Origin: Elusimicrobiota bacterium | GTDB lineage: Bacteria; Elusimicrobiota; Elusimicrobia; JACQPE01 | DNA length: 64,000 nt | NCBI GenBank assembly: GCA_016207685.1 | Contig: JACQPE010000004.1 | Span: forward strand, 1,559 to 65,558 | Reading direction: 5' to 3' | In this document: positions 3,683 to 61,321 of the stretch, one piece after another | Layout: each line of letters starts with the position of its first letter | Numbering within the stretch: the stretch's first letter is position 1 | Translations under genes and position numbers: made by a program | The notes under the pieces: generated by a model | Told to the model about the DNA's origin: nothing | Databases searched by the model: none | The model's input: only the letters and a program-made list of their open reading frames with translations

Positions 3683-5263
3683 TTACGGCGCGAATAATAA
3701 AAAAACGACCACGCCCAAAATGACCGCTGTTGCGGCGGCAGCCACGGTGGCCTTGGCTATTTTCTGCGTTTGGGTATCCTCCCTGGAATCCCCTCGTATC
3801 CGGCGCCATTTTCTGGATTCCTCCGGCGTTAATCCGGTGGAAGACGCCGTTTCTTCCTTATAGTCAATGGTCAATACCTTTTTTTGAAAATTACCCGCGG
3901 CATCCACCGCCGCAATAACCATACGATTTTCTCCTAATTGCAGCGTTGTCTCCATCGAAAAATACCCTTGGCTGTCTGTATCGGCAGATGTCGCTCCCAA
4001 GCGGATGAGCGCCCCGGGCTCCGATCGCCCCTGGATGACCAACGAATTTTTCTTTATCGTTGAGAATTCTTGTTCGGGCTCAGTGATATCCAAAAATGGC
4101 GCTTGGCGGTCCAACGCTAATTTTTGCCAATCGCCAAATGGCCCTTCAAAACCCAAACGATCACGCAAAGAGACCCGATAAACATAAAGTCCGTCATCCA
4201 AACCAGTCCGACCAAAATCAAAAGGTTCCTCAAACGTAGCTGTTTCATCCCAAAGTAAAACGCCCTCCGGGGACTGCGCCACTTGAACACGCAGCAAAGA
4301 AACTTGAGGTATTCTCCGCATGATCCCGGCGCCGCGGCGGCTGCTTCCCATAACCCAACCCAAGGCGCTTCCTCGAAGAACAAAATTCCCTTGGTCTGAA
4401 ATCGTCTTTGTTGATGTAACTACGGATTCAGAATCCCAAAACTTCTCTATCACCACCCGGTTAGGAACTTCCGGCACAGGAACTGCTTGACCCGGAGGCC
4501 GGCCCGCAGGCACCTCCGTGGCAAAACCTTGACGCACAGAAACAGTTTGATTTTGCGCTTGAACATCAGCGACGCCCGCATAAACCTCAACCACTGTGGC
4601 CAAATCTTCGCGTACTCGGGCGCGGTATTCCACATTTTTCGATTTTGGCGTGATTCGGGCCGATTGGGTAACCACGCGAGCGCCCAAAGACCGAATTTCT
4701 CCTGAAATCAGCGCGGCCTCTCCAATGTTTTGCGCACCGGCGCGCTCAGGGCGTATAACGGCAAAAGATTGAGGTCCCAGGACCAAGTCTTCCCCTTGCG
4801 CGAAACGCACCCGCGCTTGGGAGAGCGCGCCGGTGCGCAAGCCGTCATCTTGCCAAATATCCATATTTTTCGAGGCGACTTTCCACAAGGGGGACTCCCG
4901 CCGCCGAAGCTCCACCAGCCGCTGAGTTTCCATGAGCTTAGCTGATCGCAGGCTTTCTTTTACCAATAAAACAGGAATTCTCAAGGTTTGCCCGGGTAAA
5001 GCCATGGCGGGATCCGATGTCGGCAGCTTGTTGTGCCGGGCAATTTCAGGCCAACGGCTAGGGTCCTTGAGATAACGCTCGCTTAAGGACCACCATGTAT
5101 CCCCGGGCTCAATAGCCACTTCTTGATAGAAGCGGGACTCTTCCGCGAAGATAAAATTCCATGTTCCAAGTTCTAGGCTCCAAGTCGAAAATAAAAAAAT
5201 CCCAGCGATTCGGCATCTTGTTTTGAACCGGGAACTGGGAACCGGGAACTGGGAACTAATCAT
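3683..5263 (-). CDS. LysM domain-containing protein with C-terminal transmembrane anchor
   Basis: LysM-like [20 protein letters not shown]...LPGQTLRIP; C-terminal hydrophobic [20 protein letters not shown]; ATG lies 2 nt after the histidine kinase stop (translational coupling); 5' codons are made of the heptamer repeat, so the true start is uncertain. Confidence 0.55.
5225..5256. repeat. heptanucleotide tandem repeat (GAACYGG)x4.5
   Basis: read directly: gaaccgg gaactgg gaaccgg gaactgg gaac, spanning the histidine kinase stop and the start of the LysM gene. Confidence 0.9.
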
Positions 5264-9867: not shown

Positions 9868-9877
9868 AAATAAAAAA

Positions 9878-9895
9878 GTCCAACGTCCAATGTCC
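9878..9895. repeat. heptamer array (GTCCAAY)x2.6
   Basis: gtccaac gtccaat gtcc; inverse complement of the array at 9934..9960. Confidence 0.8.
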
Positions 9896-9933
9896 GCTTT
9901 TTAAAATTTGAAGTAGGGAATTAAAAATTCCAT

Positions 9934-9960
9934 GACTTTGGATTTTGGACTTTGGACTTT
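9934..9960. repeat. heptamer array (GAYTTTG)x4
   Basis: gactttg gattttg gactttg gacttt; the same unit recurs at 24520..24550. Confidence 0.85.
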
Positions 9961-9981
9961 TTTCGTGATCTCCGCCATTTA

Positions 9982-21872: not shown

Positions 21873-22994
21873 CTATGCCATAGGCTCCCTGCGGGAAATG
21901 CCGATTAAAATTCCGGCCATGAGGCAGCAGGTAATTAATGATGAGCCGCCATAGGAAATAAAGGGCAGCGTGATACCTTTAGTCGGCGCCAGCGCCGTGG
22001 TGACTGCCATGTGGATGGCCGCCTGATATGAAAGACAAAACGTGATTCCCAGGGCCAGATGCCGCTCAAAAAACCATTGGGACTTAAGCGCCGCGCGCAA
22101 GCCGCGGATGGTGACTATCGCGAATAACCCGATCACCAGGACGCTGCCCGCAAACCCTAGTTCTTCGCCGATCACCGGAAAAACAAAATCCGTGTGCGGC
22201 TGCGGCAGATAATGCAGCTTCAGCTCCGAGTCGCCCAAACCCTTGCCTAACAAGCCTCCGGACCCAAGAGCCAAAAGCGCCTGAGCGATTTGATAGGTGG
22301 CGCCGTGATTGCCGGCGTCAAGGCCGCCGCGCCACAGCGACAGGAATCCGATTAATCGCTTGACGCGATAAGGGCTTTGATTAACTAAAAAAATCACCGC
22401 CGGTATAGCGGCCAGGGGATACACCAAAAAAAACCGCCAAGGTATCTCGGAGGCCAAAATCATCGTAAAAAAAACAAGCGCCATCACGACGGGATTGCCA
22501 AAATCAGGCTCCCAAACGACCGGTAAGACCAGCACGACAAAAATCAACGCAGGCCAAGCCAATGCCCATGGCAAGCGATCCAGTTTTGAATGGTAGCGGT
22601 CCAAATACCGAGCCAGGGCAACAATCAAAACGAGCTTAGCCAGTTCCGATCCTTGAAAACCCAATGGACCCAAATAAAGCCATCGCTTGGCCCCGCCCAC
22701 GCTGCGCCCCAAACCCAATGTCAGGATCAACAGACAAAACGTGGCCACGTAAAGCGGCAGCCATAGCTTTCTCCAAACTTCCATCTTAAGCCGCGTCCCG
22801 AAAAACATGGCAACTAAACCCATAGTCAAATAAATCAAATGCCGCCTTAAGTAGTAAAAAACGTCGCCAAAACGGTTGCCGGCCATAATGGAACTTGAAG
22901 AAAAAACCATCACGGCTCCCATGATGATTAAAATAGCGAAAGCGCCGATGAGCCAAGGGTCTCCGACCGCTAATCCGGACCGCTTAAATTTCAC
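21873..22994 (-). CDS. ftsW: SEDS-family peptidoglycan glycosyltransferase FtsW/RodA
   Basis: conserved C-terminal block GGLLGKGLGDSELKLHYLPQPHTDFVFPVIGEELGF; position after murD in the dcw cluster. Confidence 0.8.
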   Translation of the reverse strand: MKFKRSGLAVGDPWLIGAFAILIIMGAVMVFSSSSIMAGNRFGDVFYYLRRHLIYLTMGLVAMFFGTRLKMEVWRKLWLPLYVATFCLLILTLGLGRSVGGAKRWLYLGPLGFQGSELAKLVLIVALARYLDRYHSKLDRLPWALAWPALIFVVLVLPVVWEPDFGNPVVMALVFFTMILASEIPWRFFLVYPLAAIPAVIFLVNQSPYRVKRLIGFLSLWRGGLDAGNHGATYQIAQALLALGSGGLLGKGLGDSELKLHYLPQPHTDFVFPVIGEELGFAGSVLVIGLFAIVTIRGLRAALKSQWFFERHLALGITFCLSYQAAIHMAVTTALAPTKGITLPFISYGGSSLITCCLMAGILIGISRREPMA

Positions 22995-24376
22995 GCGCCT
23001 AATTCCTTCGCCAATGCGCTGATTAATCGCTTAAACTCTTCTCCACGATGCTCATAATGGCGGAATTGGTCAAAAGAGGCGCAGGCTGGAGAAAGAACGA
23101 TCAAATCTCCGGTTGAGGCATTCATTAAGGCGGCGCGCATCGCCAGTTCCAACGTTTGACAGCGCTCGCCATCGAATGCCGCATGTAGTTCCTTAAAAAT
23201 CAACTGATTCGCCTCTCCGTAACAATAAAATTTTTTGACTTGACCGCCGCGCGCGGCAATCGGGGCATATGATGCGCCCTTATCCTGCCCCCCTAGAAGC
23301 AAATGGATTTTTCCCCCTCTTGATAGCGCCAAGGGTTCCAGCGCCCGCAAAGCCGCGACCACGCTATCCACATTGGTCGCTTTTGAATCATTGATGAATA
23401 ACACATCCCGGATGCTGCCTGCGCGCTCGAGACGATGCGGCGGCGGTTGATACGTCTCCAGGGCCTCTTCAACGCCCACGCGCGGCATATCCGCCTCCAA
23501 AACGGCCAAAAGGGCAGCCATCTGGTTTTCCAAATTATGAACTCCCATTAAATTTGGCGCCGGCTTCATATCATAAGAACGCGCCCCGCGCTGACCGGAA
23601 TAACGGACGCGAAGCATGCCTCCCTCAAACCATGCGCCCTCTTGGAGAGAGCGCGCTGAACTAAAAAAAACGCGGCGGCTTGATGCCCGCTCCAGAACGG
23701 CCCTGGCCGCGGCATCCTCAAAATTACCCACGCCAAGACCTGCGACTTTGACAAAGTCGAACAATTTCGCCTTGGCCGAAACATAATTTTCCCAACTACC
23801 ATGATGGCTTAAATGATCCGCGGTGATGTTCATCAAAACGCCGCAATCAAGCGTCAATGAGGCAGAATCCTCCAGTTGGTAGCTCGAAATTTCCAAAATC
23901 AACGCATGCTTGTTCGTTATTTGGTCAATCGCCTCGATCAGGGGCGAACCAATGTTGCCCGCCGCCAGAGCCGGATAACCGCAAGTTCTAAATAGGTGGC
24001 CGGTCAAATCCGTGGTTGTTGTTTTGCCGTTGGTGCCGGAAATGCCGATGATTATTTTTGGCTTTATCGCCATTGCTCCAAAGGCGAAATCCATCTCGCT
24101 TAAGATGGTCTTGCCCGATTCATTCAATTTTTTAAATATCGATGACCGTGGATCAAGCCCCGGGCTTTTAATGACATAACGCGCCTTCAGCACCGCGTCC
24201 GAATGGCCGCCCAACTCAATGAGCGCCCGAGGGTGGGCTTCCTTGGCGGATTTCCCCAACAAAGGGCTCGCGGCGTTATCGCTGGCTAAAACTTTTGCCT
24301 TGGGATGGCGGCGCCGCAAAAAACGCAACGCGGCCAATCCCGATTTGCCTAATCCCAGGACAGCGTAGTCGAACAC
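22991..24376 (-). CDS. murD: UDP-N-acetylmuramoyl-L-alanine--D-glutamate ligase
   Basis: Mur-ligase P-loop IGISGTNGKTTTTDL; dcw context. Confidence 0.85.
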   Translation of the reverse strand: MFDYAVLGLGKSGLAALRFLRRRHPKAKVLASDNAASPLLGKSAKEAHPRALIELGGHSDAVLKARYVIKSPGLDPRSSIFKKLNESGKTILSEMDFAFGAMAIKPKIIIGISGTNGKTTTTDLTGHLFRTCGYPALAAGNIGSPLIEAIDQITNKHALILEISSYQLEDSASLTLDCGVLMNITADHLSHHGSWENYVSAKAKLFDFVKVAGLGVGNFEDAAARAVLERASSRRVFFSSARSLQEGAWFEGGMLRVRYSGQRGARSYDMKPAPNLMGVHNLENQMAALLAVLEADMPRVGVEEALETYQPPPHRLERAGSIRDVLFINDSKATNVDSVVAALRALEPLALSRGGKIHLLLGGQDKGASYAPIAARGGQVKKFYCYGEANQLIFKELHAAFDGERCQTLELAMRAALMNASTGDLIVLSPACASFDQFRHYEHRGEEFKRLISALAKELGA

Positions 24377-24390
24377 TAGCGGGGGCCCAA

Positions 24391-24415
24391 CGTCCGGCGT
24401 CCGGCGTCCGGCGTC
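24391..24415. repeat. heptamer array (CGTCCGG)x3.5
   Basis: cgtccgg cgtccgg cgtccgg cgtc, 15 nt upstream of the murD start codon. Confidence 0.9.
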
Positions 24416-24519
24416 TTAAGCCTGAAAATAAAAAATTTAATAATGAAATCAGAGAGTGTAACAATGGAAAAATGAAAATCCGAAAATCCAAACTTCCATA
24501 CTCCAAATTTTTTTGATTT

Positions 24520-24550
24520 GACTTTGGACTTTGGACTTTGGACTTTGGAC
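24520..24550. repeat. heptamer array (GACTTTG)x4.4
   Basis: gactttg gactttg gactttg gactttg gac, ending 5 nt from the mraY stop codon. Confidence 0.9.
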
Positions 24551-24554
24551 TTCT

Positions 24555-25652
24555 TCATCTCACTTTCAAACTGGCCAAAGCAATGAGGGCCAAAATAACC
24601 CCGACCACCCAAAATCGAACCACAACTTTGGGCTCGGCCGCCCCCAAAAGCTCGAAGTGGTGATGAACGGGCGACATTTTAAAAATTCTCTTGCCCTTGG
24701 TCATGCGGAAATAGCCCATCTGAATAACCACGCTCAAGGATTCGGCCAAAAAAACACCGCCGATCACGGGCAGCAAAATCTCCTGCTTGGAGACAATGGA
24801 GACGAACACCAGCAAGGACCCCAACGGCAGCGATCCTGTGTCTCCCATAAAAATTTGCGCCGGATAACTGTTGAACCATAAAAATCCTAAACCCGCGCCG
24901 ATCAAAGCGGAAAGAACGATCGTGAGTTCCCCCGCGGCCGGCACTGAAATAATGCGCAAATACTGAGAAAACCGGGCATGCCCCGCGGCATAGACGAACA
25001 CGAGCATCGCGGAGGCCGCAATCACCAAATTACCGATCGCGAGTCCATCCATGCCGTCGGTTAAATTAACGCTGTTGGAAAATCCAACGAACAAGAGCAT
25101 CACCAGGAAAAAATAAAACACATGCAAATTAAGATAAGTCTCTTTGATAAAAGGCACATTAACGCTCAAAGCGAATTGGGCATTGGGGGGATAAAGCGCC
25201 AGATAAAAAGCGAACGCCGAGGCCGCGCCGATTTGAAGCAAGAATTTAACCCTGGAGCTTACGCCTTCGGCCCTGCCCTCGCGCCTCGGCGCGTGAATTT
25301 TGAGCCAGTCATCCCAAAACCCGAGCGCTGCAAATAAAAAAAGCAGCAATTGCGCCATCAGCACATAGCGGTTATCCGGGCGCGCCCATAAAAACACCGT
25401 CAACATCATCACCGCAATAATTAAAAGTCCCCCCCCAACGGCAATTCCTGTTTTGGTTTGATGGGAATCCGGACCCCAGACTTTGGGTTTATTGACCATT
25501 CCATGAGCCAAAAGCGTTCGAATCATCCAGGGTCCCATAAACAAACACACGGCGAAGGCCGTCACGGCCGCTGCCCCGGCCCTGAAGGTGATGTAAGAAA
25601 ATACATTGAGGCCAAAATAGCTGTGGCGTAACAGAGAAAGATAATAGAGCAT
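24555..25652 (-). CDS. mraY: phospho-N-acetylmuramoyl-pentapeptide transferase
   Basis: polytopic membrane protein with MraY blocks IFMGDTGSLPLG and PVHHHFEL. Confidence 0.9.
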   Translation of the reverse strand: MLYYLSLLRHSYFGLNVFSYITFRAGAAAVTAFAVCLFMGPWMIRTLLAHGMVNKPKVWGPDSHQTKTGIAVGGGLLIIAVMMLTVFLWARPDNRYVLMAQLLLFLFAALGFWDDWLKIHAPRREGRAEGVSSRVKFLLQIGAASAFAFYLALYPPNAQFALSVNVPFIKETYLNLHVFYFFLVMLLFVGFSNSVNLTDGMDGLAIGNLVIAASAMLVFVYAAGHARFSQYLRIISVPAAGELTIVLSALIGAGLGFLWFNSYPAQIFMGDTGSLPLGSLLVFVSIVSKQEILLPVIGGVFLAESLSVVIQMGYFRMTKGKRIFKMSPVHHHFELLGAAEPKVVVRFWVVGVILALIALASLKVR

Positions 25653-25768
25653 TAAACTGTCACTGACATATAGCCTCGAAAAAAATTATTTTCCAGCCCG
25701 GACGATTCGCTCTTCGCTCTCTGGGCCGCGTTTCGCGTTTCGCCGCTTTTGGACTTTGGCCATCCTAT

Positions 25769-27220
25769 TTAAAACTCCCTTTTTAGATCACTAATCAATT
25801 CTTCAAGAGCCTCGGCCCGCGATGCCTTAAATAACACCGCTCCTGGCGGAGGATATAAAAATAGTTGCCGCTTAATAAGTTCCAATGCCTCTCCTCTCGT
25901 CGCAAAAATGACCTTGGGTCCCATTTTGCCGAATTCCTGGTTCAAGCCCATGGCCAAGCGCTCGGCCGCGAACCGGCCCGTCACCACAAAAACCACGCGT
26001 TCATTGATGAGACCGGCCCCTTTGGCTTGCCGGGCGATGCTGGCGCCTGTTTGATAATGCAGCTCCATCTCACGACTGCCCAGCTCACGCATTTCCCCCA
26101 AAACGACGATGCGCGTTCCCTCGCGGGCGCCGGCCAAAAACCCGATGACGCTATCCTCCATGGAAGCGGGATTGGCATTGTACGCGTCATTAATGGCGAC
26201 AAACTGTTCAGCTAGCGCCGGACTTAAATCAATGCGATCGCCGCGCAGGGAAACCGGAGTAAATTTTAAAAGTCCTTGCAAAATTTTCTTGACCGGAACT
26301 TTGGCGGCCAAGCCGCAGGCTGCGGCGGCAAGCGCGTTTTTCATAGGTCCCAAGGCTGTCATGGGGATCATCGCCTCGCCCAAAAATTTTTCTTGGTACA
26401 TGATCTCCAACAAGGTTCCCTTGGCGCTGCGACTCTTAATGCGCCCCTGAACATCGGCGCCGGGCTCAAAACCAAAACTTAAATAACCGCAACCAGGCCA
26501 CAACGCCGGAAGCCTGGATAGCCAGGGATCCTCTTTCCCATAAATAACCTGGCCGCCGGGTTCAAGGCCGCGTAAAATTTCGGACTTCGTCTCAAAAATA
26601 GTTTTTTCGTCGCCAAAAGTCGCCAGATGCGCCGGCGCGATGTTGGTCAAAACAACAATCTGGGGTTTGCCGGCCAAAGACAAAGGCTCAATATCGCCCT
26701 TTTTCCGCGCTCCCATTTCCCAAACTGCGAAACGATGCTTCTCGGAAAGTTCAAGAATAGACAACGGACAGCCCACTTCATTATTAAAATTACCGCGACT
26801 GCTGGTAACGGGGCCTGATTGGGAAAGAACTCCGGCAATCATTTCCCTCGTTGTTGTTTTACCGTTGCTGCCGGTGACGCCCACGACGGTGACTTGGGAA
26901 AAAAGAGCCCGGTGCGCTTGGGCCAAAGCCAATAACGCATCCAGACCGCGCCTCACTAAGATGATCGCCCCCTGGGCAGAAGCAGGGGGCCGGGGCTCGC
27001 GACTCACCAAAGCGCCCAAGGCTCCGCTGGCCAAGGCATCAGGCACAAAATCATTGCCGTCTTTATTGGCGCCTTCAATGACCCAGAAAAGTTCTCCCTT
27101 GGCGATTCGCCGGGAATCAACGGCGATTGAAGACACGGCTTGCCGTGGATCGCCTTGAAGCAACCGCCCATGGCAAGCATCCGCAATTCTTCCCAGAGTC
27201 CAATGCTTCAAGAGCTCCAT
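25769..27220 (-). CDS. murF: UDP-N-acetylmuramoyl-tripeptide--D-alanyl-D-alanine ligase
   Basis: P-loop VGVTGSNGKTTTREM and Mur-ligase C-terminal domain. Confidence 0.85.
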   Translation of the reverse strand: MELLKHWTLGRIADACHGRLLQGDPRQAVSSIAVDSRRIAKGELFWVIEGANKDGNDFVPDALASGALGALVSREPRPPASAQGAIILVRRGLDALLALAQAHRALFSQVTVVGVTGSNGKTTTREMIAGVLSQSGPVTSSRGNFNNEVGCPLSILELSEKHRFAVWEMGARKKGDIEPLSLAGKPQIVVLTNIAPAHLATFGDEKTIFETKSEILRGLEPGGQVIYGKEDPWLSRLPALWPGCGYLSFGFEPGADVQGRIKSRSAKGTLLEIMYQEKFLGEAMIPMTALGPMKNALAAAACGLAAKVPVKKILQGLLKFTPVSLRGDRIDLSPALAEQFVAINDAYNANPASMEDSVIGFLAGAREGTRIVVLGEMRELGSREMELHYQTGASIARQAKGAGLINERVVFVVTGRFAAERLAMGLNQEFGKMGPKVIFATRGEALELIKRQLFLYPPPGAVLFKASRAEALEELISDLKREF

Positions 27221-28204: not shown

Positions 28205-30589
28205 ATGAAAACACCCTCTGCAATAATGGCCCGCCTGGATTACGGCCCCAATCCCGAAACAACCAAAGTCCATTTTAAGCCGATTTATGATCTTTTTATT
28301 AACAATGAATGGGCGCCACCGATATCCGGAAAATACTATGACACCATCAATCCGGCCGCGGGCAAAGCGCTGGCCAAGATTGCCTGGGGCAATGAGCTTG
28401 ATATTGACCGCGCCGTCAAGGCCGCCCAAGAAGGATTTAAAACATGGAAATCTTATTCCCCCTCCGAGCGCAGCCGTCTGATCTTCGCTTTGGCCCGTAT
28501 CATCCAAGAACGCTCCCGCGAATTGGCCATTGCCGAAACGCTCAATAACGGTAAGCCCATTCGCGAATCGCGTGACATTGATATTCCATTGGCGGCGCGG
28601 CACTTTTTCTACCACGCGGGATGGGCCGACAAACTGGAATCAGCATTTGCCGATATTACGATCGCACCCCTGGGCGTTGTCGGTCAAATCATCCCTTGGA
28701 ATTTCCCCTTTCTCATGCTGGCTTGGAAAGTGGCTCCCGCATTGGCTGCCGGCAATGCCGTGATCTTAAAACCCGCGGAAACCACGCCCCTAACAGCGCT
28801 TTTATTTGCCGATATCTGCCGTGATGCAGGGCTGCCGCCAGGCACCGTTAACATCGTCACCGGGCACGGCGACACAGGCGCCGCCTTGGCCAACCACCCA
28901 GGCGTGGCCAAAATCGCTTTTACCGGTTCGACCGAAGTGGGGAAATTAATCCGCAAGGCCACGGCCGGTTCAGGCAAAAAACTGTCCCTCGAACTCGGCG
29001 GTAAATCCCCAACGATTATCTTCGAGGATGCGCCGCTCTATCAAGCCGTTGAAGGCATCGTGGACTCAATTTTCTTTAACCAAGGCCAGGTGTGCTGCGC
29101 CGGCTCCAGACTGTTGCTCGAAGAAAGCATCGCTCCCAAATTTATCGAACTTCTGAAAGACCGGATGGCCAAAATTCGCGTCGGCGACCCCATGGATAAA
29201 AATACGGATATGGGCGCCATTAACTCTCAAGATCAGCTTGATAAAATCCGCCATTACGCCAAAATCGGACAAGATGAGGGAGCCTGCTTGTGGCAAGCTC
29301 CTTGCGAGCTGCCCAAACAGGGTTTTTTCTTTCCCCCAACGATTTTTACGGAAGTTCAAACCACTCATACGATTGTTCAAGAAGAAATTTTCGGCCCGGT
29401 GCTTTCCATCCTGACATTCAGAACCGTGAACGAAGCCGTGGAACTGGCCAATAACACGCCCTATGGCCTGGCTGCGAGCGTCTGGACTAAAGATGTGTCC
29501 AAGATGGTGGCTGTATCGCGAACGCTCAAAGCGGGCACCGTCTGGGGCAATGGCACGAATAAATTCGATGCAGCCGCCGAATTCGGCGGACACAAAGAAT
29601 CCGGCTTTGGCCGCGAAGGCGGTTTGCAGGGACTATGGGAGTACTTGCAAGTTCAAAGTTCAAAGTCCGAAGTCCGAAGTCTCGATGAAATCTACCGCAA
29701 CGCCTCACCGCAACCCGCAACCCGCAACCCGCAACCCGCAACTCATGTATGGAAAACGCCGAAGATGCTCATCGGCGGCAAGCAGGTTCGCACGGAATCA
29801 GGCCGTTATTACAAAATCAACGCCGCCAACGGCCAAAAACTTCTTGCCGATGTTAATCAAGGCTCGCGTAAAGACATTAGAGATGCCGTTGAAGCGGCGC
29901 ATGCCGCTTTGCCTGGATGGTCCAAAACCACGGCCTACAATAGAGGCCAAATTCTCTACCGCATGGCCGAGATGCTTTCCTCCCGCGCCTCTGAATTCGC
30001 CCATGCCATTGCCGCCCAAACAGGGAGTTCCTGGGAAGATGCCGCAGGTGAAGTTTCCTTAACCATCCAACGCCTGCTCCACTATGCCGGCTGGTCGGAT
30101 AAATACACGGGGAGCGTCAATCCCGTGACACAAACGGACTTTAACATCACCTACCCGGAAGCCGTCGGCGTCGTCGCTTTATTCGCGCCCAACACCCGGC
30201 CCCTCTTGGGCCTCATCAGCAAATTAGCGCCCGCTTTTGCAGCCGGCAACACGAGCGTCGTCGTTGCCTCCGAGCAATTTCCCCTAAGCGCCACGGACTT
30301 TATTGAAATTTTAGACAGCTCGGACGTCCCTGCGGGCGTCATTAACATCATAACCGGATTGCATGAAGAACTCCTGCCCACTGTAGCCGAACACCGCGCC
30401 GTGGGCTTGATTGATGTTTCAGGACCCGCCGCACGGGTTAAAATAGCCGAGGAGCTTTCGATCAGCAACCTCAAACGCGTTTATCATGACCCGGAAATGC
30501 CGGATTGGACATCTCCCGAAGCCCAAGGCCGATTGTGGATGCGCCGCTACCTGGAATTTAAAACCGTCTGGATCACCAGCGGCTTTTAA
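28205..30589 (+). CDS. aldehyde dehydrogenase fused in frame to a second, truncated ALDH-like module
   Basis: module 1 complete (LSLELGGKSP, catalytic FFNQGQVCCAGSRLL, end ...GLWEYLQVQ); heptamer-encoded linker SSKSEVRS...PQPATRNPQPAT; module 2 from Met 29765 (MLIGGKQV...) has ALDH N-terminal/NAD-binding-like sequence but no catalytic Cys/Glu region. Confidence 0.7.
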   Translation: MKTPSAIMARLDYGPNPETTKVHFKPIYDLFINNEWAPPISGKYYDTINPAAGKALAKIAWGNELDIDRAVKAAQEGFKTWKSYSPSERSRLIFALARIIQERSRELAIAETLNNGKPIRESRDIDIPLAARHFFYHAGWADKLESAFADITIAPLGVVGQIIPWNFPFLMLAWKVAPALAAGNAVILKPAETTPLTALLFADICRDAGLPPGTVNIVTGHGDTGAALANHPGVAKIAFTGSTEVGKLIRKATAGSGKKLSLELGGKSPTIIFEDAPLYQAVEGIVDSIFFNQGQVCCAGSRLLLEESIAPKFIELLKDRMAKIRVGDPMDKNTDMGAINSQDQLDKIRHYAKIGQDEGACLWQAPCELPKQGFFFPPTIFTEVQTTHTIVQEEIFGPVLSILTFRTVNEAVELANNTPYGLAASVWTKDVSKMVAVSRTLKAGTVWGNGTNKFDAAAEFGGHKESGFGREGGLQGLWEYLQVQSSKSEVRSLDEIYRNASPQPATRNPQPATHVWKTPKMLIGGKQVRTESGRYYKINAANGQKLLADVNQGSRKDIRDAVEAAHAALPGWSKTTAYNRGQILYRMAEMLSSRASEFAHAIAAQTGSSWEDAAGEVSLTIQRLLHYAGWSDKYTGSVNPVTQTDFNITYPEAVGVVALFAPNTRPLLGLISKLAPAFAAGNTSVVVASEQFPLSATDFIEILDSSDVPAGVINIITGLHEELLPTVAEHRAVGLIDVSGPAARVKIAEELSISNLKRVYHDPEMPDWTSPEAQGRLWMRRYLEFKTVWITSGF
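29651..29685. repeat. heptamer array (GTYCRAA)x5 inside coding sequence
   Basis: gttcaaa gttcaaa gtccgaa gtccgaa gtctcga. Confidence 0.9.
29709..29743. repeat. heptamer array (CGCAACC)x5 inside coding sequence
   Basis: cgcaacc x4 then cgcaact; encodes PQPATRNPQPAT in the ALDH frame. Confidence 0.9.
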
Positions 30590-35504: not shown

Positions 35505-37055
35505 TCACGTCTTCCATTTAGAAAGATACTTGCGGCATATCTCGCGATCATCAAAATGGACTCTTCTGTCGCGAAAAATTTGATAAGTTTCATGCCCTTT
35601 ACCGGCGACAAGCACGCAGTCTTCCGATTGCGCCTGGAAAATGGCGTATCGAATCGCTCTCCGGCGATCAACAAAATGAACGAAATTCCGGCGTCCTTCG
35701 GATTCGGGTCCTTTGATCATCATATCGATGATACGCCTAGGGTCCTCGCTGCGTGGATTATCCGAGGTAAATACGGCCAGATCAGCCAAACGGGACGCCA
35801 GGGCCCCCATGATCGGACGTTTACCCGGATCGCGATCGCCGCCGCAGCCGATCACAACAATGAGACGCCCTTTCCGGGGCAGAGCGCGCAATGCTTCGAT
35901 AACATTTTTAAGCGCTTCCGGTTTGTGCGCGTAGTCCACCAGAACCAGGGGTTGCCCATATTTTGAAATTTTCTCCAGCCTCCCGGGAACACCCTTGAGC
36001 GCAGCTATTCCACGGGCAATGGCCCGCCAAGACATTCCCAGGGACCGGCACGCCGCGGCCGCGGCCAGAGCATTGACGGCATTATAAGAACCGATCAAAG
36101 GGAGCGCTGTTTTCATTCTTTCTTTTCCAGCGGCGATCTCGCAATCCGTATGATCAAAAAAGGGACTAACTCTTTTGAGGCAAAAATCGCTCTTCTTGTT
36201 CACGCCGCCGCCAAACAACAAAGGCTTTGCTGTTTTCTCTGATAATAACTTCCGGTAAAGCTTACGGCCCCACGCATCGCCCATATTGACAAGCGCCATT
36301 TTTCCAGTCTTGGATGATTTCTTAAGAAGCCGGGTGAATAACTGCTCCTTGGCGGCAAAGTATTGCCCCATTGTTTGATGGTAATCCAAATGATCCCGGC
36401 TCAAATTCATGAACACGGCCCTATCAAAATGAAGTCCCTCGAGCCTGCCCCGATGAATCGCCTGAGAGGTCGCTTCCATGAAACAAAACCGGCATTTGGC
36501 GTAGACCATGCGCGCCAACATGGAAATAATCTCATCCGGCTGCGGTGTCGTGAGGGTCGCTGGAAAAATTCGTCCATTAATTCGGTTGCTCACGGTCCCC
36601 AAAACGCCGCACGGCCATCCCTGGGCCCTGGCGATTGCCTCCATCAGGTAACACACCGTTGTCTTGCCGCTGGTGCCCGTGACAGCTACCAATTTGATTT
36701 TTTTTGAAGGATCGTCATAAACCCAATTGGCCAACTCATGGAGCCATTCTCGCAGCCGAGGCCCTTGATAAACAGGAACGTCGCGCATCGAGGCCTCTTC
36801 ACGAAGATTCTTCATAATCTTTGGAGGCGCCGATGGCTCCACCAAAACCGCGCAGGCGCCGTCCCTAATGGCCTGCAAGGCATAACATGCGCCATGGGTT
36901 TGAGCGCCGGCCAAGGCGCAAAACACGGTGCCAGGAGCCACGCGGTTCGAATCGGAACTGACGTGGGCAATGGCACGATCAACAGGCGACTCCACAAAAG
37001 GTTGAAGCCTGTCTCCAAAATGCCTTATGAGCGCGACTAATGTTTTTTTTCTCAT
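35505..37055 (-). CDS. murE: UDP-N-acetylmuramoyl-L-alanyl-D-glutamate--2,6-diaminopimelate ligase
   Basis: P-loop VAVTGTSGKTTVCYLM; 4-nt overlap with ftsI. Confidence 0.85.
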   Translation of the reverse strand: MRKKTLVALIRHFGDRLQPFVESPVDRAIAHVSSDSNRVAPGTVFCALAGAQTHGACYALQAIRDGACAVLVEPSAPPKIMKNLREEASMRDVPVYQGPRLREWLHELANWVYDDPSKKIKLVAVTGTSGKTTVCYLMEAIARAQGWPCGVLGTVSNRINGRIFPATLTTPQPDEIISMLARMVYAKCRFCFMEATSQAIHRGRLEGLHFDRAVFMNLSRDHLDYHQTMGQYFAAKEQLFTRLLKKSSKTGKMALVNMGDAWGRKLYRKLLSEKTAKPLLFGGGVNKKSDFCLKRVSPFFDHTDCEIAAGKERMKTALPLIGSYNAVNALAAAAACRSLGMSWRAIARGIAALKGVPGRLEKISKYGQPLVLVDYAHKPEALKNVIEALRALPRKGRLIVVIGCGGDRDPGKRPIMGALASRLADLAVFTSDNPRSEDPRRIIDMMIKGPESEGRRNFVHFVDRRRAIRYAIFQAQSEDCVLVAGKGHETYQIFRDRRVHFDDREICRKYLSKWKT

Positions 37056-38800
37056 GTCGGCCCCTGATGCACAACATTGACATTTTGCGCTGACAATGCG
37101 GGCTTAAGTCCCATATTCACAATCGCTTCCTGCATTATTTTCTTAAACAATGGGGCCGCCAAGTCGCTGGCCCAGGCCACTTTAGGCTTGCGCGGATCAT
37201 CCAATATCACACAGGCGGCCAATTCCGGTTCCGGCATGGGCAAGGCGCCACAAAATGAAACGACAACATGATTTGGCGTATGGAGTCTGGTTTTCGGATC
37301 AATTTTCTGTGCCGTCCCTGTTTTTCCGGCCGTTGGATATCCGGCCATTTGAGCGGACTTGCCAGTTCCCTGTGCCACCACGCCTTCCATCAAAACCATG
37401 GCGCGCTTGGCCGCATTTTGAGGTAATGCTTGACGGACTTTCCGCGAAGAAAACGCGTAAAGCCGGCGCTCCTCGCGAAAACCCTTAATGCGATCAACAA
37501 TCTGGGGTTCAAGCAAAATGCCGCCGTTGGCCAAAGCCGCGTACGCTTGCGTTAATTGAAGCGGCGTCGTTCCGATTTCATATCCAAATGACATCATGGG
37601 CAAACTGACAGCGCTCCATCCCGCGGGCGGCCGGACAATGCCGACCGATTCTCCCGTGACGGGGAGCGCGGTTCTTGAGCCGAAACCAAACGCCCGATAG
37701 GCCTGATAAAGACCTTCCTGGCCGAGAGCCATGCCGATCTTGGCAAAACCGATATTTGAAGAATGCGCTATCACGGCGCTCAAGGGAATCAACCCATAAG
37801 GCTCATGGTCGGAAATCGTCAGGCTCGGCGTTGGATGCCAGCGCCCATTCTCGCAATCAATTTCATCTGTCTCTTGGACAACGCCGGCGTCCAATGCCGC
37901 CGCCAACACAAAAGGCTTGACAACGCTGCCCGGCTCAAAGGTATAACTCACGGCCAAATTAGGGTCCAGACTAAATCCCAATCCATCCTCAAAACCAGCT
38001 TCGGTGCGGCTCGCCATGGCCAAAAGCGCTCCCGTCCTGACATGAACGACTACGGCCACGGCGGCGCGGGCGTCCTGATGGGCCAGCGCTTCTTCCAAAT
38101 GAGCTTCCGTGCTTGATTGCAACTGAGCATCCAGCGTTAAATAAACATCAAAGGGTCCTTCGTCATGGCCGCGACTCCAGGGCCAGATCGCCATGCTCTC
38201 CGGCCGATCCTCTTCAGCAAACACCTTTCCTAAGGCATCCCGCAAAACAACACGCACCTCCTCTTTCCCTTGCAGCAGGGGATTAAGCTGCCTCTCAAGG
38301 CCGGATGTCCCCTCGCCGTCAATGCCCACGGAACCGATCAACTCCGCTGCCGTTTTCCCCCAGGGATAACGGCGCTTGGATTCAAGCTCAATTCCGATTC
38401 CCTTAATTCCCAGGCGCCTTAACGCCTCGGCCTCATCGGCAACGACCTGACGTTTGATCCAAACAAAATTCGACGATCCCCGAAGGCGGCGCATGAGGTC
38501 GCGTTGGTCAACACCTGAAATAACACGCGCGATTTGAAGCGCCAGGCGCTCGGGTGGAATATCGGTCTCTCGACGCGACACAAACAAAGACGGCATCTCG
38601 ACCGATACCCCAAGAACCCGGCCTCGCCGGTCAAGGATCCGCCCTCGCATGGGGCGGACACGCCTTGTTTGAACAACCTCGGAAGCTGTCATCTTGGCGT
38701 AAGAACCGTGCCTCACAATCTGAAGCTGGCCTAACCGGACAGCCACGGCGCCATAGAGAAAAAAAATCGCAGCCAAAGGCAGAAAGAGCCGGAAAGTCAT
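37052..38800 (-). CDS. ftsI: peptidoglycan D,D-transpeptidase FtsI (PBP3)
   Basis: SxxK (SVVKPF), KTG (AGKTGTAQK) and a dimerisation domain; start set at MTFRLFLPLAAIF (38800), because the ORF-track N-terminus MALFHFELGTWNLELGT is the translated heptamer repeat. Confidence 0.85.
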   Translation of the reverse strand: MTFRLFLPLAAIFFLYGAVAVRLGQLQIVRHGSYAKMTASEVVQTRRVRPMRGRILDRRGRVLGVSVEMPSLFVSRRETDIPPERLALQIARVISGVDQRDLMRRLRGSSNFVWIKRQVVADEAEALRRLGIKGIGIELESKRRYPWGKTAAELIGSVGIDGEGTSGLERQLNPLLQGKEEVRVVLRDALGKVFAEEDRPESMAIWPWSRGHDEGPFDVYLTLDAQLQSSTEAHLEEALAHQDARAAVAVVVHVRTGALLAMASRTEAGFEDGLGFSLDPNLAVSYTFEPGSVVKPFVLAAALDAGVVQETDEIDCENGRWHPTPSLTISDHEPYGLIPLSAVIAHSSNIGFAKIGMALGQEGLYQAYRAFGFGSRTALPVTGESVGIVRPPAGWSAVSLPMMSFGYEIGTTPLQLTQAYAALANGGILLEPQIVDRIKGFREERRLYAFSSRKVRQALPQNAAKRAMVLMEGVVAQGTGKSAQMAGYPTAGKTGTAQKIDPKTRLHTPNHVVVSFCGALPMPEPELAACVILDDPRKPKVAWASDLAAPLFKKIMQEAIVNMGLKPALSAQNVNVVHQGPT

Positions 38801-38813
38801 GGCGGACAATAGA

Positions 38814-38848
38814 GTTCCAAGTTCCAAGTTCCAAGTTCCAAGTTCAAA
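38814..38848. repeat. heptamer array (GTTCMAA)x5
   Basis: gttccaa x4 then gttcaaa, 14 nt upstream of the ftsI start. Confidence 0.9.
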
Positions 38849-38896
38849 ATGGAAAAGGGCCAAAAAAAGCAGGGCTTCTTTTCCCTCTTGACTTTT

Positions 38897-38924
38897 AACT
38901 TGGAACTTGGATATTGGAACTTTC
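38897..38924. repeat. heptamer array (AACTTGG)x4, inverse complement of 38814..38848
   Basis: aacttgg aacttgg atattgg aactttc. Confidence 0.85.
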
Positions 38925-38930
38925 TGCTGA

Positions 38931-39203
38931 TCATGGCATCACCCGGAGCTTTTCAGCAACCGGATAATCTGTGGGCAACCGATAACCTTGTTCGCGCGCC
39001 TTGATGGCCGTGATCTTATAAAACTGAATTTGTGCCAACTTAAATTCCATTTGAGCCAATTCTAAATCAAGGCCTTGAAGTTTTTCCCTCAAGCTTGCCA
39101 CCCGGTAGCCGCTTTGAACAACAAGAGTGCGCATCCAGACAACGGTCAAAAATGATAGGGCAACCCCCGGAATAATAATTAAGACTTTGACGCCGGATTT
39201 CAC
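38931..39203 (-). CDS. ftsL: cell division protein FtsL
   Basis: 90 aa, single N-terminal TM helix (VLIIIPGVALSFLTVVW) then coiled coil; position between rsmH and ftsI. Confidence 0.5.
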   Translation of the reverse strand: MKSGVKVLIIIPGVALSFLTVVWMRTLVVQSGYRVASLREKLQGLDLELAQMEFKLAQIQFYKITAIKAREQGYRLPTDYPVAEKLRVMP

Positions 39204-39250
39204 TCGCGCCGCCTTGAAAAACCAAAAGAATGCCGAATGCCGGAATCTAA

Positions 39251-39360
39251 AACGTCGAATTTCGAACGTCGAATTAAGGAACAGGGAAAATTTTGAATTT
39301 TAAATTTTGAATTTTGAATTAAGGAATTCATTTTATTTGTCATTTGAGATTCGTCATTCG
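39251..39360. repeat. compound short-tandem-repeat region: (CGTCGAA/TTTCGAA)x3, (AATTTTR)x4, (GTCATTY)x2
   Basis: aacgtcgaatttcgaacgtcgaatt ... ttttgaattttaaattttgaattttgaatt ... gtcatttgagattcgtcattcg; related to 51470..51506. Confidence 0.85.
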
Positions 39361-40253
39361 CCATTTCTAGGTTCATCAATTTTTTCAATGGCTCGCAATC
39401 TGGCTGATCGCGCTTTAGGATTCTGTTCCAGCTCCCTCTCGCAGGCCTGAACCGTGGAACGCGACAAAAAACGCGCCTGTCCGGATTCGACCCAAGAGTG
39501 AAAAACATCCTTGACAATCCGGTCCTCTAAAGAATGAAAACTAATAACAACCACCCGTCCCCCTGGTTTTAAGACCGCCGGAACAAAACCGAGCATTTGC
39601 CGGATGGCTCCCAGTTCATCATTGACCACGATGCGCAAGGCTTGAAAAACTTGAGCCCATATTTTGCGATTTCCGCTCGCACGCCGCAAAAATTTCACGA
39701 GCGCGCCCGATGTTTTGATCGAACCCCCGGCATTACAGAGCGTATGCGCGATACGACGGGACCACGATCTTGAAATTTCACCATTGGCCATCAGCAATTG
39801 TTCCAGGTCGCCCTCTGAAAGGGCCGCCAACAATTCGGCCGCGGTAATGCCTTTGTTTTGGCTGTCTAAACGCATGTCAAGAGGCTCGTCATTTTGGTAA
39901 GAAAGCCCAAGGCCTGAGTCCAAAACCTGAAAAGTCGAAGGTCCGAGGTCGCATAAGATGCCATCAACCGAAGGCCACGCCGCTCGAGTCAACACATGGT
40001 CCAAATTTCTAAAATTTGCCCGGACAAACCGGGTTCGATCGTGAAAAAATTTAAGGCGCTCCTGCGCTAAAGCCAAACTGCGCTCATTCCAATCAACACA
40101 AAGGCACCTTGCTTGAGGAAGCAGGGACAAAAGAGACCAGGAATGCCCTCCCGCTCCTGTCGTCAAATCCACATAATAGCCCTGGGGGTTTCCAGCCCAA
40201 TAATCTACCGCCTCTTGAAGAAGAACGGGCACATGAAGGGTCAGCGGCTTCAT
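39354..40253 (-). CDS. rsmH: 16S rRNA (cytosine1402-N4)-methyltransferase
   Basis: MKPLTLHVPVLLQEAVDYW...VDLTTGAGGHS, typical MraW/RsmH N-terminus; heads the dcw cluster. Confidence 0.9.
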   Translation of the reverse strand: MKPLTLHVPVLLQEAVDYWAGNPQGYYVDLTTGAGGHSWSLLSLLPQARCLCVDWNERSLALAQERLKFFHDRTRFVRANFRNLDHVLTRAAWPSVDGILCDLGPSTFQVLDSGLGLSYQNDEPLDMRLDSQNKGITAAELLAALSEGDLEQLLMANGEISRSWSRRIAHTLCNAGGSIKTSGALVKFLRRASGNRKIWAQVFQALRIVVNDELGAIRQMLGFVPAVLKPGGRVVVISFHSLEDRIVKDVFHSWVESGQARFLSRSTVQACERELEQNPKARSARLRAIEKIDEPRNGE

Positions 40254-40265
40254 ATAATGATTATT

Positions 40266-40670
40266 GCATTACCGGCGGCATCTGCCGGAGGGCCGCCCTT
40301 CATCTATTACAGATCGAGGGAGGAAATTCCGAACTCCGCAGAGCCAGGGTGCCGTCTAAAAGGCGGGGCGCCCGTTGGAGACAACCGGCGCACGGACAGT
40401 GCCACAGAAACGAAACCACCCCATGATCCGTCACGATTAAGGGGAACGGGTGAAACCGTGAGGTAAAAGCTCACGCAGAATCATAGAAATATGAATCCGG
40501 AGGAAAACCCCACCTGGAGCAAGGCTGGATTTAGGAAAACTCCGCCAGGTCAGGCTCAAGACCGGGGTTCCTAAGTCCCTGCAAAGCAGAACGCCGCTTA
40601 GATAAATGGTCCTCGCTTGATTTTTACATCAAGCACAGAATTCGGGGTACAGGCAAGCCGCCGGTAATGC
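40266..40670 (+). ncRNA. rnpB: RNase P RNA (bacterial type)
   Basis: P4-region block GAGGAAAUUCCGAACUCCGCAGAGCCAGGGUGCCG (cf. GAGGAAAGUCCGGGCUCC...GGGCAGGGUGCCAGG); also CACGGACAGUGCCACAGAAACGAAACCACC, GGUGAAACCGUGAGGUAAAAGCUCAC and CCACCUGGAGCAAGGCUGGAUUUAGG; 14-bp terminal helix gcattaccggcggc/gccgccggtaatgc. Confidence 0.8.
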
Positions 40671-51448: not shown

Positions 51449-51469
51449 AAGGACACCTCTCTTCTAAAA

Positions 51470-51506
51470 ATTTTCAATGACGATTTTCGAATGACGAATT
51501 TCGAAT
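51470..51506. repeat. (TTTCGAA/TGACGAA) 14-mer tandem repeat x2.5
   Basis: ttttcaatgacgattttcgaatgacgaatttcgaat; shares the core GACGAATTTCGAA with 39251..39275. Confidence 0.85.
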
Positions 51507-51520
51507 AAAAACGAATCCTG

Positions 51521-60022: not shown

Positions 60023-60094
60023 TGTCCCCAAGTGGAATTGAACCACTATCTTTGCCTTCGCAGGGCAACACTCTATCCGTTGAGCTATGGGGAC
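60023..60094 (-). tRNA. tRNA-Arg, anticodon GCG
   Basis: cloverleaf folded by hand from GTCCCCATAGCTCAACGGATAGAGTGTTGCCCTGCGAAGGCAAAGATAGTGGTTCAATTCCACTTGGGGACA; acceptor 7 bp, Arg-type D-arm, anticodon loop CTGCGAA. Confidence 0.75.
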
Positions 60095-60765: not shown

Positions 60766-60854
60766 GGAGAGATGCGTGAGCGGTTGAAACGGCACGCCTG
60801 GAAAGCGTGTATAGCCGAAAGGCTATCGAGGGTTCGAATCCCTCTCTCTCCGCA
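60766..60854 (+). tRNA. tRNA-Ser, anticodon GGA
   Basis: class II tRNA: acceptor GGAGAGA/TCTCTCC, D-loop GAGCGGTTGAA identical to E. coli tRNA-Ser, anticodon loop CTGGAAA, long variable arm TAGCC-GAAA-GGCTA, T-loop TTCGAAT; T-run follows. Confidence 0.85.
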
Positions 60855-61321
60855 CTTTTTTAGAGAAAAAGTACGGTTCGGACGGCCCCTGCTCGGAGGG
60901 CAGGGACCCTTGAAGCGCCTGAGGCGCGTTGAGCCGGAGGCGCTGGGACGAATATAAAATATGTCCCATTCTCTCCGCAGAAGTTGACAGATTTCAAAAC
61001 TCTACCGCAAGAAAGCCGCGTTCATGTTGGGCAACGGGCGGAGCAATAGCTCAACCGTCTTTCTAGGCCATTCATGGTTGAGATTATCCTCCGTTGTGGG
61101 TATCCCAGCGCCTCGGCGCACACAACAATCCCTGTTTTTGGGGCTCAATAGGTTCATTTGCATTATGGCCTGTCGTTTTGCTGTCTACGCTTCACGACCA
61201 GCGTCGCCGAGGACCTTGCAAGACGCGCTACGACCCTGCGGGCTAGGCTTTGGGTTGATGGAACTTGCATCCATTGGATTTCTACGGCTTTCCTGGCGCA
61301 GGGGGGTTAGGGGTTAAAAAA

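Follow-up and report, generated by a model that had tools for sequence, protein, structure and literature searches.

The ftsL-ftsI spacer and its fold

We analyzed the spacer between the cell division genes ftsL and ftsI in a 64-kb stretch of the genome of an Elusimicrobiota bacterium (contig JACQPE010000004.1), hereafter called the window. Both genes are part of a minus-strand operon that runs from a MraW-family methyltransferase gene through the gene in ftsL position and ftsI to murE (Table 1). The assignment of ftsL rests on position and architecture, as the gene has no Pfam match but is syntenic with the small open reading frame (ORF) found between the MraW-family gene and ftsI in relatives. 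On the mRNA strand, 130 nt separate the ftsL stop (38931) from the ftsI ATG (38800). This gap is made of a heptamer array, a spacer and a reverse-complement array immediately before ftsI, an anatomy that an initial annotation of the window had described correctly. The 5' arm is an imperfect array, which on the plus strand reads TTTTAAC TTGGAAC TTGGATA TTGGAAC TT and which contains 3.7 heptamer copies with 78% matches in positions 38897-38922. The plus strand of the 3' arm (38813-38848) consists of 4.7 perfect copies of AGTTCCA (38813-38845) followed by a single GTTCAAA variant. The two arrays had been given as (GTTCCAA)5 and (AACTTGG)4; both exist, but their counts have to be corrected to four perfect units plus one variant, and to two perfect plus two variant units, respectively. 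The arms are 44-47 nt apart and share 87-90% complementarity across 30-31 nt. Allowing for up to two mismatches, GTTCCAAGTTCCAA occurs 10 times in the window versus 0.68 times expected, a count reached by none of 100 shuffled sequences.

Table 1. Positions of genes, repeat arms, heptamer-built spacers and predicted relay ORFs in the window
Feature	Positions	Strand	Description
MraW-family methyltransferase gene	39354..40253	-	first gene of the operon segment
ftsL-position gene	38931..39203	-	90 aa, N-terminal membrane helix then coiled coil; stop TGA 38933-38931
ftsI	37052..38800	-	582 aa from ATG 38800; Pfam PBP_dimer and Transpeptidase
murE	35505..37055	-	follows ftsI
ftsL-ftsI spacer	38801..38930	-	operon spacer built from arrays
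5' arm	38893..38922	-	mRNA sense GTTCCAA TATCCAA GTTCCAA GTTAAAA, imperfect heptamer array; starts 8 nt past the ftsL stop
Spacer between arms	38849..38892	-	lengthens the stem (GGAAAAG..GCC / GGC.CUUUUCC); apical loop with U7 run
3' arm	38814..38848	-	mRNA sense TTTGAAC then (TTGGAAC) x4; 13 nt from its end to the ftsI ATG
Upstream GCCATGA copy	38931..38937	-	7-nt direct repeat flanking the putative insertion
Downstream GCCATGA copy	38797..38803	-	includes the ftsI start codon
Putative relay ORF ftsL-ftsI	38797..38934	-	45 codons, MISRKFQYPSSKLKVKREKKPCFFWPFSILNLELGTWNLELYCPP; ATG on ftsL stop (ATGA), TGA on ftsI ATG (ATGA)
Putative relay ORF mraW-ftsL	39364..39200	-	54 codons; TGA overlaps ftsL GTG (GTGA)
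Putative relay ORF mraY-murD	24558..24376	-	60 codons; ATGA at mraY stop, TAGTG at murD start
mraW-ftsL spacer	39204..39353	-	direct arrays GAATGCC, AACGTCG/AATTTCG, AATTTTG (plus strand)
mraY-murD spacer	24377..24554	-	(AGTCCAA) x4, imperfect inverse array, (GACGCCG) x3
Histidine-kinase/LysM spacer	5151..5262	-	GTTCCCR arrays, inverse CTTGGAR-type array; operon spacer built from arrays (taken as 5151-5255)
Inverted heptamer pair	9868..9981	-	(AGTCCAA)n ... (TTGGAC)n; fold z -3.7 to -5.8
Operon spacer built from arrays	25653..25768
Operon spacer built from arrays	51449..51520
In-frame arrays AAGTTCA, AAGTCCG, CCGCAAC	29649..29742	+	variable linker of double aldehyde-dehydrogenase gene

The minus-strand RNA is predicted to form a strong hairpin, as the initial annotation had anticipated, with a folding energy of -62.4 kcal/mol versus a shuffle mean of -36.6 kcal/mol (z -6.9; 0 of 200 shuffles fold as well); the 130-nt spacer alone folds at -56.3 kcal/mol. 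A 15-bp unbroken helix is embedded in an interrupted stem of ~30 bp, which ends 13 nt from the ftsI AUG. Such a structure could be a dedicated cis-regulatory hairpin that attenuates transcription or occludes ftsI initiation and thereby sets the FtsL:FtsI ratio, a control point proposed by the initial annotation. The strength of the hairpin and its position next to a start codon without a Shine-Dalgarno sequence, both of which we can confirm, would fit this proposal. A Shine-Dalgarno sequence is present at only ~35% of the putative starts in the window, however, so that its absence at ftsI is unremarkable. A terminator scan found no site at the element: the 3' arm is followed by UCUAUUGUCCGCC, and the sole U7 run is located in the apical loop. 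We rejected an intrinsic terminator or attenuator because no U-tract follows the stem. For the element, no Rfam covariance model reached its gathering score, and the only matches were to plant miRNA-precursor hairpins (16-32 bits versus thresholds of 54-200).

The arrays also bear on where ftsI begins. The mechanical ORF for FtsI starts at TTG 38863, and it is this start that attaches the ELGTWNLELGT peptide noted in the initial annotation. The GenBank FtsI protein (P0001; 100% identical, 591 aa) begins with MELGTLLSAMTF, at TTG 38827 inside the heptamer array. In an alignment with nine FtsI homologues, similarity begins at MTFRLFLPLA, the sequence encoded from ATG 38800 on. This alignment indicates that ATG 38800 is the true start, and that the ELGT... 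extension is an ORF-calling artefact carried into the GenBank protein. Gene callers run ORFs into heptamer arrays because the arrays contain no stop codons. Start codons annotated beside heptamer repeats in metagenome-assembled genomes (MAGs) therefore deserve caution, the GenBank FtsI being an example of a protein stretched into a stop-free array.

The junction in relatives

We compared the ftsL-ftsI junction to those of other bacteria. P0001 comes from an Elusimicrobia MAG. The best FtsI matches after it are 57-43% identical, and those with a source name are Elusimicrobia; the nearest relative available for comparison has 57% FtsI identity. Among the matches listed, a profile scan of genome contigs with the FtsI alignment returned only loci of other phyla with 31-38% identity, which served as background controls. 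In three relatives (L001, L003 and L005; 53-57% FtsI identity), ftsL and ftsI overlap by 4 nt in the sequence ATGA, and gaps of 3 and 4 nt are found in L006 and in the contig of P0007, respectively. The closest relatives found (52-57% FtsI identity) hence have either an ATGA overlap or a 3-4-nt gap, and none contains the heptamer element. In the more distant L007 (43%), the two genes are separated by 98 nt of unrelated sequence.

In the window, the extra DNA amounts to exactly 134 nt and is bracketed by two copies of GCCATGA. Deleting it in silico yields ...GTGATGCCATGACTTTCC..., an ATGA junction resembling those in L001, L003 and L005. Because the relatives show an overlap or a 3-4-nt gap, and because removal of 134 nt restores the ATGA junction, the element appears to be a lineage-specific insertion and not a conserved fold. 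A conserved ftsI leader is not supported either, as the element is neither present nor structurally kept at the junctions of the relatives. The initial annotation, which had suggested a control point, had itself named a canonical overlapping junction in relatives as the observation that would speak against it, and this is what the comparison revealed. Its premise that ftsL and ftsI normally overlap or abut is valid in this clade but not in diverse bacteria, where by a crude estimate ~40% of ~60 ftsI junctions overlap and the others have gaps of 2-190 nt, many of them 17-190 nt long.

An insertion located precisely between two GCCATGA copies, where the junction of relatives is unbroken, would also be expected for a mobile element resembling a miniature inverted-repeat transposable element (MITE) that inserts with a 7-bp target-site duplication; the arms could then represent its inverted termini. 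However, selection for the start/stop overlap could preserve ATGA, which makes up four of the seven duplicated bases, and each locus in the window has a different heptamer.

Among the background loci, two from Acidobacteriaceae have the ftsL-ftsI gap filled with an inverted (CAGTTCT)n/(AGAACTG)n pair (L045, 9895-9967; L067, ~9884-9961), which is predicted to form 26-bp stems of -49 and -51 kcal/mol, respectively. These independent heptamer hairpins at the same junction favor a regulatory function at ftsI, and they may reflect either chance in heptamer-rich genomes or a hairpin that is tolerated or useful at this position. An assembly artefact is unlikely, because similar elements recur at many loci in the window and because L045 and L067, MAG records from different projects, share one at the same junction.

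Other Acidobacteriota (L011, L012, L018, L020 and L055, with variants in L027, L035 and L059) have a different, common motif in the ftsL-ftsI gap at ~9790-9970. It consists of GGCGGC...GGGCCGCC, a short hairpin and then ATGTTTGTCTA, and may represent an undescribed leader element upstream of ftsI. A conserved hairpin motif in this gap is again a point in favor of regulation at ftsI. In L007, an ~80-nt repeat (TTCTGTCATCC.CGCGAA.GCAGGCTTC...GGGCGGGGATCCAG) is located at ~3185-3270 and 4960-5045, in the ftsI-murE spacer and in the spacer downstream of murE; it differs in kind from the heptamer arrays.

Heptamer spacers and putative relay ORFs

The element at ftsI is not the only one of its kind. 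A census of period-7 repeats covering the 64 kb of the source genome identified ~20 period-7 rows with Tandem Repeats Finder. Counting only perfect arrays with a minimum length of 15 nt, there are 17 at period 7, five at period 6 and none at periods 8-12. A tolerant detector found 11 period-7 arrays versus 0.16 in shuffled sequences, and none at periods 8-11. In 1.44 Mb of diverse ftsI loci, the background density is 2.75 period-7 arrays per 64 kb, making the density in the window ~4-fold higher. At least 12 different heptamer units are present (GTTCCAA, GTTCCCR, GTCCAAA, GACGCCG, CAAAATT and others). Nine of 11 strict arrays are outside conserved coding sequence, and the remaining two are found in a protein linker. 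Seven operon spacers are built from arrays (Table 1), including those between mraW and ftsL, murF and mraY, and mraY and murD; their autocorrelation at lag 7 is 0.37-0.57 versus ~0.25 at other lags. The ELGTWN-type motif that the initial annotation had seen near 5170-5200 is indeed part of an imperfect array (5156-5185) in one of these spacers, accompanied by an inverse-type array at 5225-5257. Since about seven spacers of the window are built from heptamer arrays, the element cannot be regarded as specific to ftsI. By its sequence features, the ftsL-ftsI spacer is a member of a genome-wide class of heptanucleotide tandem repeats that resembles the short tandemly repeated repetitive (STRR) sequences of cyanobacteria. 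Relatives differ in this respect: heptamer arrays are found at other sites in L003 and L005, and none were detected in L001 and L006. The linker between the two halves of the double aldehyde-dehydrogenase gene contains different heptamer arrays in L003 (13778-13860).

Four of the seven spacers pair an array with a near-inverse one and fold significantly; the others contain direct arrays only and do not fold. The hairpins could serve as mRNA stability or processing elements. They would either block 3'-5' exonucleases in the manner of REP/BIME stem-loops (see below) or be substrates of RNase III, and the ftsL and ftsI segments could then decay separately. Long helices such as the one described above and the 26-bp stems of L045 and L067 would suit this role, as would the typical arm of ~31 nt, equivalent to about three turns of a helix. 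In metagenome contigs, 17 of the 20 paired elements that could be classified are located between convergent or co-directional genes. In addition, RNase III acting on 5'-UTR structure is described as taking part in expression control at a Haemophilus locus with a heptamer simple sequence repeat (SSR) (PMC12721329). Against this, several heptamer spacers are unfolded (z -0.4 to +1.3 for the mraW-ftsL spacer, and likewise 51449-51520), and there is no G-U asymmetry among the heptamer spacers that would favor the transcribed strand. We consider a stability element rather unlikely. Of the four folding spacers, two have the lower folding energy on the sense strand and two on the antisense strand, leaving RNA selection on the transcribed strand unsupported, and this lack of strand bias also counts against a regulatory hairpin at ftsI.

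We found three heptamer spacers to be spanned by ORFs that would connect the flanking genes, and we refer to these as putative relay ORFs. In the ftsL-ftsI spacer, a 45-codon ORF has ATGA at both ends, and thus overlapping stop and start codons as known for coupled genes; overlaps of the type GTGA and TAGTG are present in the mraW-ftsL and mraY-murD relay ORFs. When the spacer interiors were shuffled with the junction bases kept, relay ORFs arose with P values of 0.075 (ftsL-ftsI), 0.038 (mraW-ftsL) and 0.033 (mraY-murD). Three relay ORFs were thus seen where ~0.22 were expected over seven heptamer spacers, and none was present in eight non-heptamer control spacers. Stop triplets in any frame are depleted in the sense strand of the heptamer spacers (22 versus 53.6 expected; 43 in antisense), and control spacers contain 56 versus 51.2 expected. 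From the relay ORFs and the stop depletion we infer that ribosomes can traverse heptamer elements. The reading frame from ATGA to ATGA at ftsI suggests that ribosomes may cross and melt the hairpin and are not blocked by it.

The histidine-kinase/LysM element is open in the LysM frame from ATG 5263, which overlaps the histidine-kinase stop. Its translation would yield a basic and then hydrophobic peptide that resembles a signal peptide, and the first canonical in-frame start past the arrays is a GTG at the border of the LysM domain.

These findings together lead us to favor, with moderate confidence, the view that the ftsL-ftsI spacer originated from insertion of a heptanucleotide repeat into a former ATGA junction, and that translational coupling was kept via the relay ORF. 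An ancestral ftsL/ftsI ATGA overlap would have received the 134-nt sequence of array, spacer and inverse array between GCCATGA copies. The arrays most likely gain and lose 7-nt units through replication slippage, as the literature on such repeats suggests. Ribosomes ending ftsL translation would re-initiate at the AUG that overlaps the ftsL UGA, translate the 45-codon relay ORF and thereby melt the hairpin, terminate at the UGA on the ftsI AUG and re-initiate there. The relay would thus preserve the ancestral coupling without a Shine-Dalgarno sequence, and the hairpin would be a consequence of the inverted arrangement of the arrays, not a conserved ftsI riboregulator. It is likely that the operon tolerates the insertion because the element is nearly stop-free on the sense strand and is spanned by the relay ORF.

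Several observations weigh against this view. Two of the three frames are open through the ftsL-ftsI element, because arrays such as (GTTCCAA)n contain no stops in any frame, and a relay ORF at this site is therefore only mildly improbable (P ~0.075). No relay ORF is present in the other four heptamer spacers of the window, or in those of L005, L045 and L067, where TGA is part of the repeat unit. The counts for stop depletion are partly pseudo-replicated, because each array repeats one unit. Slippage alone does not explain the complementary arms, the seed at an overlapping junction or the fixed order of the arms described below. Finally, the heptamer hairpins of L045 and L067 arose independently, and the site could thus be one that is selected for function.

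The ftsL-ftsI hairpin is nevertheless probably not a dedicated switch for ftsI. Beyond the missing U-tract, the closest relatives found lack the element, similar elements fill many unrelated spacers, and an open ORF runs through the stem. We regard a cis-regulatory ftsI hairpin as quite unlikely, so that of the original proposal the hairpin, its position and the missing Shine-Dalgarno sequence stand, and control specific to ftsI mostly does not. A phase-variable contingency locus would be another conceivable function of such repeats, but the essential housekeeping nature of the genes argues against it.

Other features surround these loci. The division and cell-wall cluster is split into mraW-ftsL-ftsI-murE (35505-40253) and murF-mraY-murD-ftsW (21873-27220), with the halves ~8 kb apart and other genes between them, including the double aldehyde dehydrogenase; the arrangement in L001 is similar. 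A class A bacterial RNase P RNA (176 bits, 40275-40665, plus strand) is encoded on the strand opposite to the MraW-family gene and directly upstream of it. A group II intron D1-D4 match (62 bits; gathering threshold 49) adjoins two tRNA genes, with sites at 61092-61267 (minus strand), 60023-60094 (minus strand) and 60766-60852 (plus strand).

Arm order in metagenomes and known heptamer repeats

The sequence (GTTCCAA)3 is present in more than 120 metagenome contigs with 32-70% GC. In 80 loci analyzed, an inverse array follows within 160 nt downstream in 26 cases and precedes in two. When each contig is counted across all loci, 32 contigs have the GTTCCAA arm first and four have it second (p = 2e-6). 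This fixed arm order is a property of the element and does not depend on transcription direction, because it reads alike on both DNA strands. Other heptamer pairs, which were counted by eye, have the GT-containing arm first in ~19 cases and the AC-containing arm first in two (8 to 0 in independently sampled loci). The arms of inverted pairs are ~31 nt each, and the spacers between them range from 0 to 84 nt and are not conserved.

We considered several origins of this architecture. The lengths of the two arms are uncorrelated (Spearman -0.02) and give no sign of selection for the stem. Adjacency to start codons was rejected as the source of the arm order as well, since array orientation is unbiased relative to neighboring genes (16 against 23 for lone arrays) and 19 gene starts versus 27 gene stops are found next to paired elements. 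Around 39 other GTTCCAA pairs, flanking direct repeats do not exceed the length seen in control flanks, and a target-site duplication is thus not a general feature of the pairs. The latter result also speaks against the MITE-like element introduced above, as do spacers and outer flanks that differ between copies without a conserved internal sequence. The fixed arm order, as in terminal inverted repeats, and the occurrence of the same heptamer pair in contigs of 41% to 70% GC are in its favor. On balance, we find a mobile element of this type highly improbable.

A different possibility is that a single-strand-binding protein with a footprint of 7 nt, of the cold-shock-domain type or another, uses the element as a platform; the protein would bind the first-transcribed, GT-containing arm and control hairpin formation. 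Bacillus subtilis CspB binds the heptanucleotide consensus GTCTTTG/T (PMC1904285), and the arm orders seen for GTTCCAA pairs and for the other heptamers, where GTY is in the first arm in ~19 pairs and only in the second arm in two, would be expected from such a mechanism. The occurrence of GTC/GAC in array units is only weakly enriched (24 versus 15 expected), however, similar to other trinucleotides, and we did not retain a GTC-specific unit preference. No cold-shock gene is linked to the arrays, although no search for one was made, and an arm order that is the same on both DNA strands does not in itself point to RNA. A protein platform accounting for the ftsL-ftsI element hence appears very unlikely. 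In a broader form, inverted heptamer arrays could be a functional device of fixed polarity common to several phyla, with the GTY arm 5' on either strand, a proposal we regard as unlikely. The device would fit a platform on which a protein with a 7-nt footprint, for instance an RNA chaperone with a cold-shock domain, captures the arm that emerges first and so determines whether the hairpin forms; it would equally fit scars of a process that adds repeats at DNA 3' ends. If so, the elements in the window may additionally have been shaped for translation as coupling relay ORFs, and they could be absorbed as linkers or N-terminal peptides.

We compared the heptamer arrays to known repeat systems. 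Tandem repeats of heptamers, the commonest type of long simple repeat in bacteria, have been recognized since about 1990. According to the summary in PMC4679880, Mrazek (2007) describes heptanucleotide repeats as outnumbering every other class of long SSR in most genomes, and slippage has been proposed to generate them. Intergenic heptamer arrays are over-represented in Xanthomonas and Nostoc, where some are inverted (PMC4692102), and heptamers abut start codons lacking a Shine-Dalgarno sequence in Beggiatoaceae (PMC4679880) and Nostoc (bioRxiv 10.1101/2022.06.06.494920). The window shares several properties with these systems: tandem 7-nt units, usually in 3-5 copies, as in the STRR repeats of Nostoc, Anabaena and Calothrix and in the GGGAATC repeat of Xanthomonas; a strong excess of period 7 over neighboring periods with many units per genome; a mostly intergenic location, often a few nt from start or stop codons; and inverted pairs that could fold into stem-loops (PMC4692102, PMC4679880, bioRxiv 10.1101/2022.06.06.494920). 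The (AATTTTG)n array of the window is even a rotation of the Nostoc (TTTTGAA)n unit. The host differs, being a member of the Elusimicrobia, for which no report of heptamer repeats was found in the library searched, and the units in the window are not G-rich and have no quadruplex potential.

The TAACTGA repeats of marine Beggiatoaceae (MacGregor 2015, PMC4679880) are likewise located directly upstream of start codons, including those of essential genes, where they in effect replace the Shine-Dalgarno sequence, and a translational role has been proposed for them. One unit dominates there, with 169 direct sets versus one indirect set (PMC4679880), whereas the window contains many units and frequent inverted pairs.

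Repetitive extragenic palindromic (REP) sequences and bacterial interspersed mosaic elements (BIMEs) are enterobacterial intercistronic palindromes that form a conserved sequence family linked to RAYT (REP-associated tyrosine) transposases. They too are abundant hairpin-forming intergenic repeats in operons and may have similar effects on mRNA. They share a conserved palindromic consensus, however, whereas the heptamer elements have periodicity and architecture in common and differ in their units by locus. With ATGA-mediated translational coupling, the relay ORF at ftsI shares the canonical 4-nt overlap at both ends, as found directly between ftsL and ftsI in relatives, but here the predicted coupling would proceed via an intervening 45-codon ORF without a conserved product.

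The ftsL-ftsI element thus belongs to a known class of repeats, to which relay ORFs, sense-strand stop depletion and fixed arm order are additional features that we did not find in the published descriptions cited. The locus offers three handles on such repeats: an insertion into an ATGA junction that can be dated, relay ORFs accompanied by stop depletion, and an arm order that is fixed across unrelated genomes.

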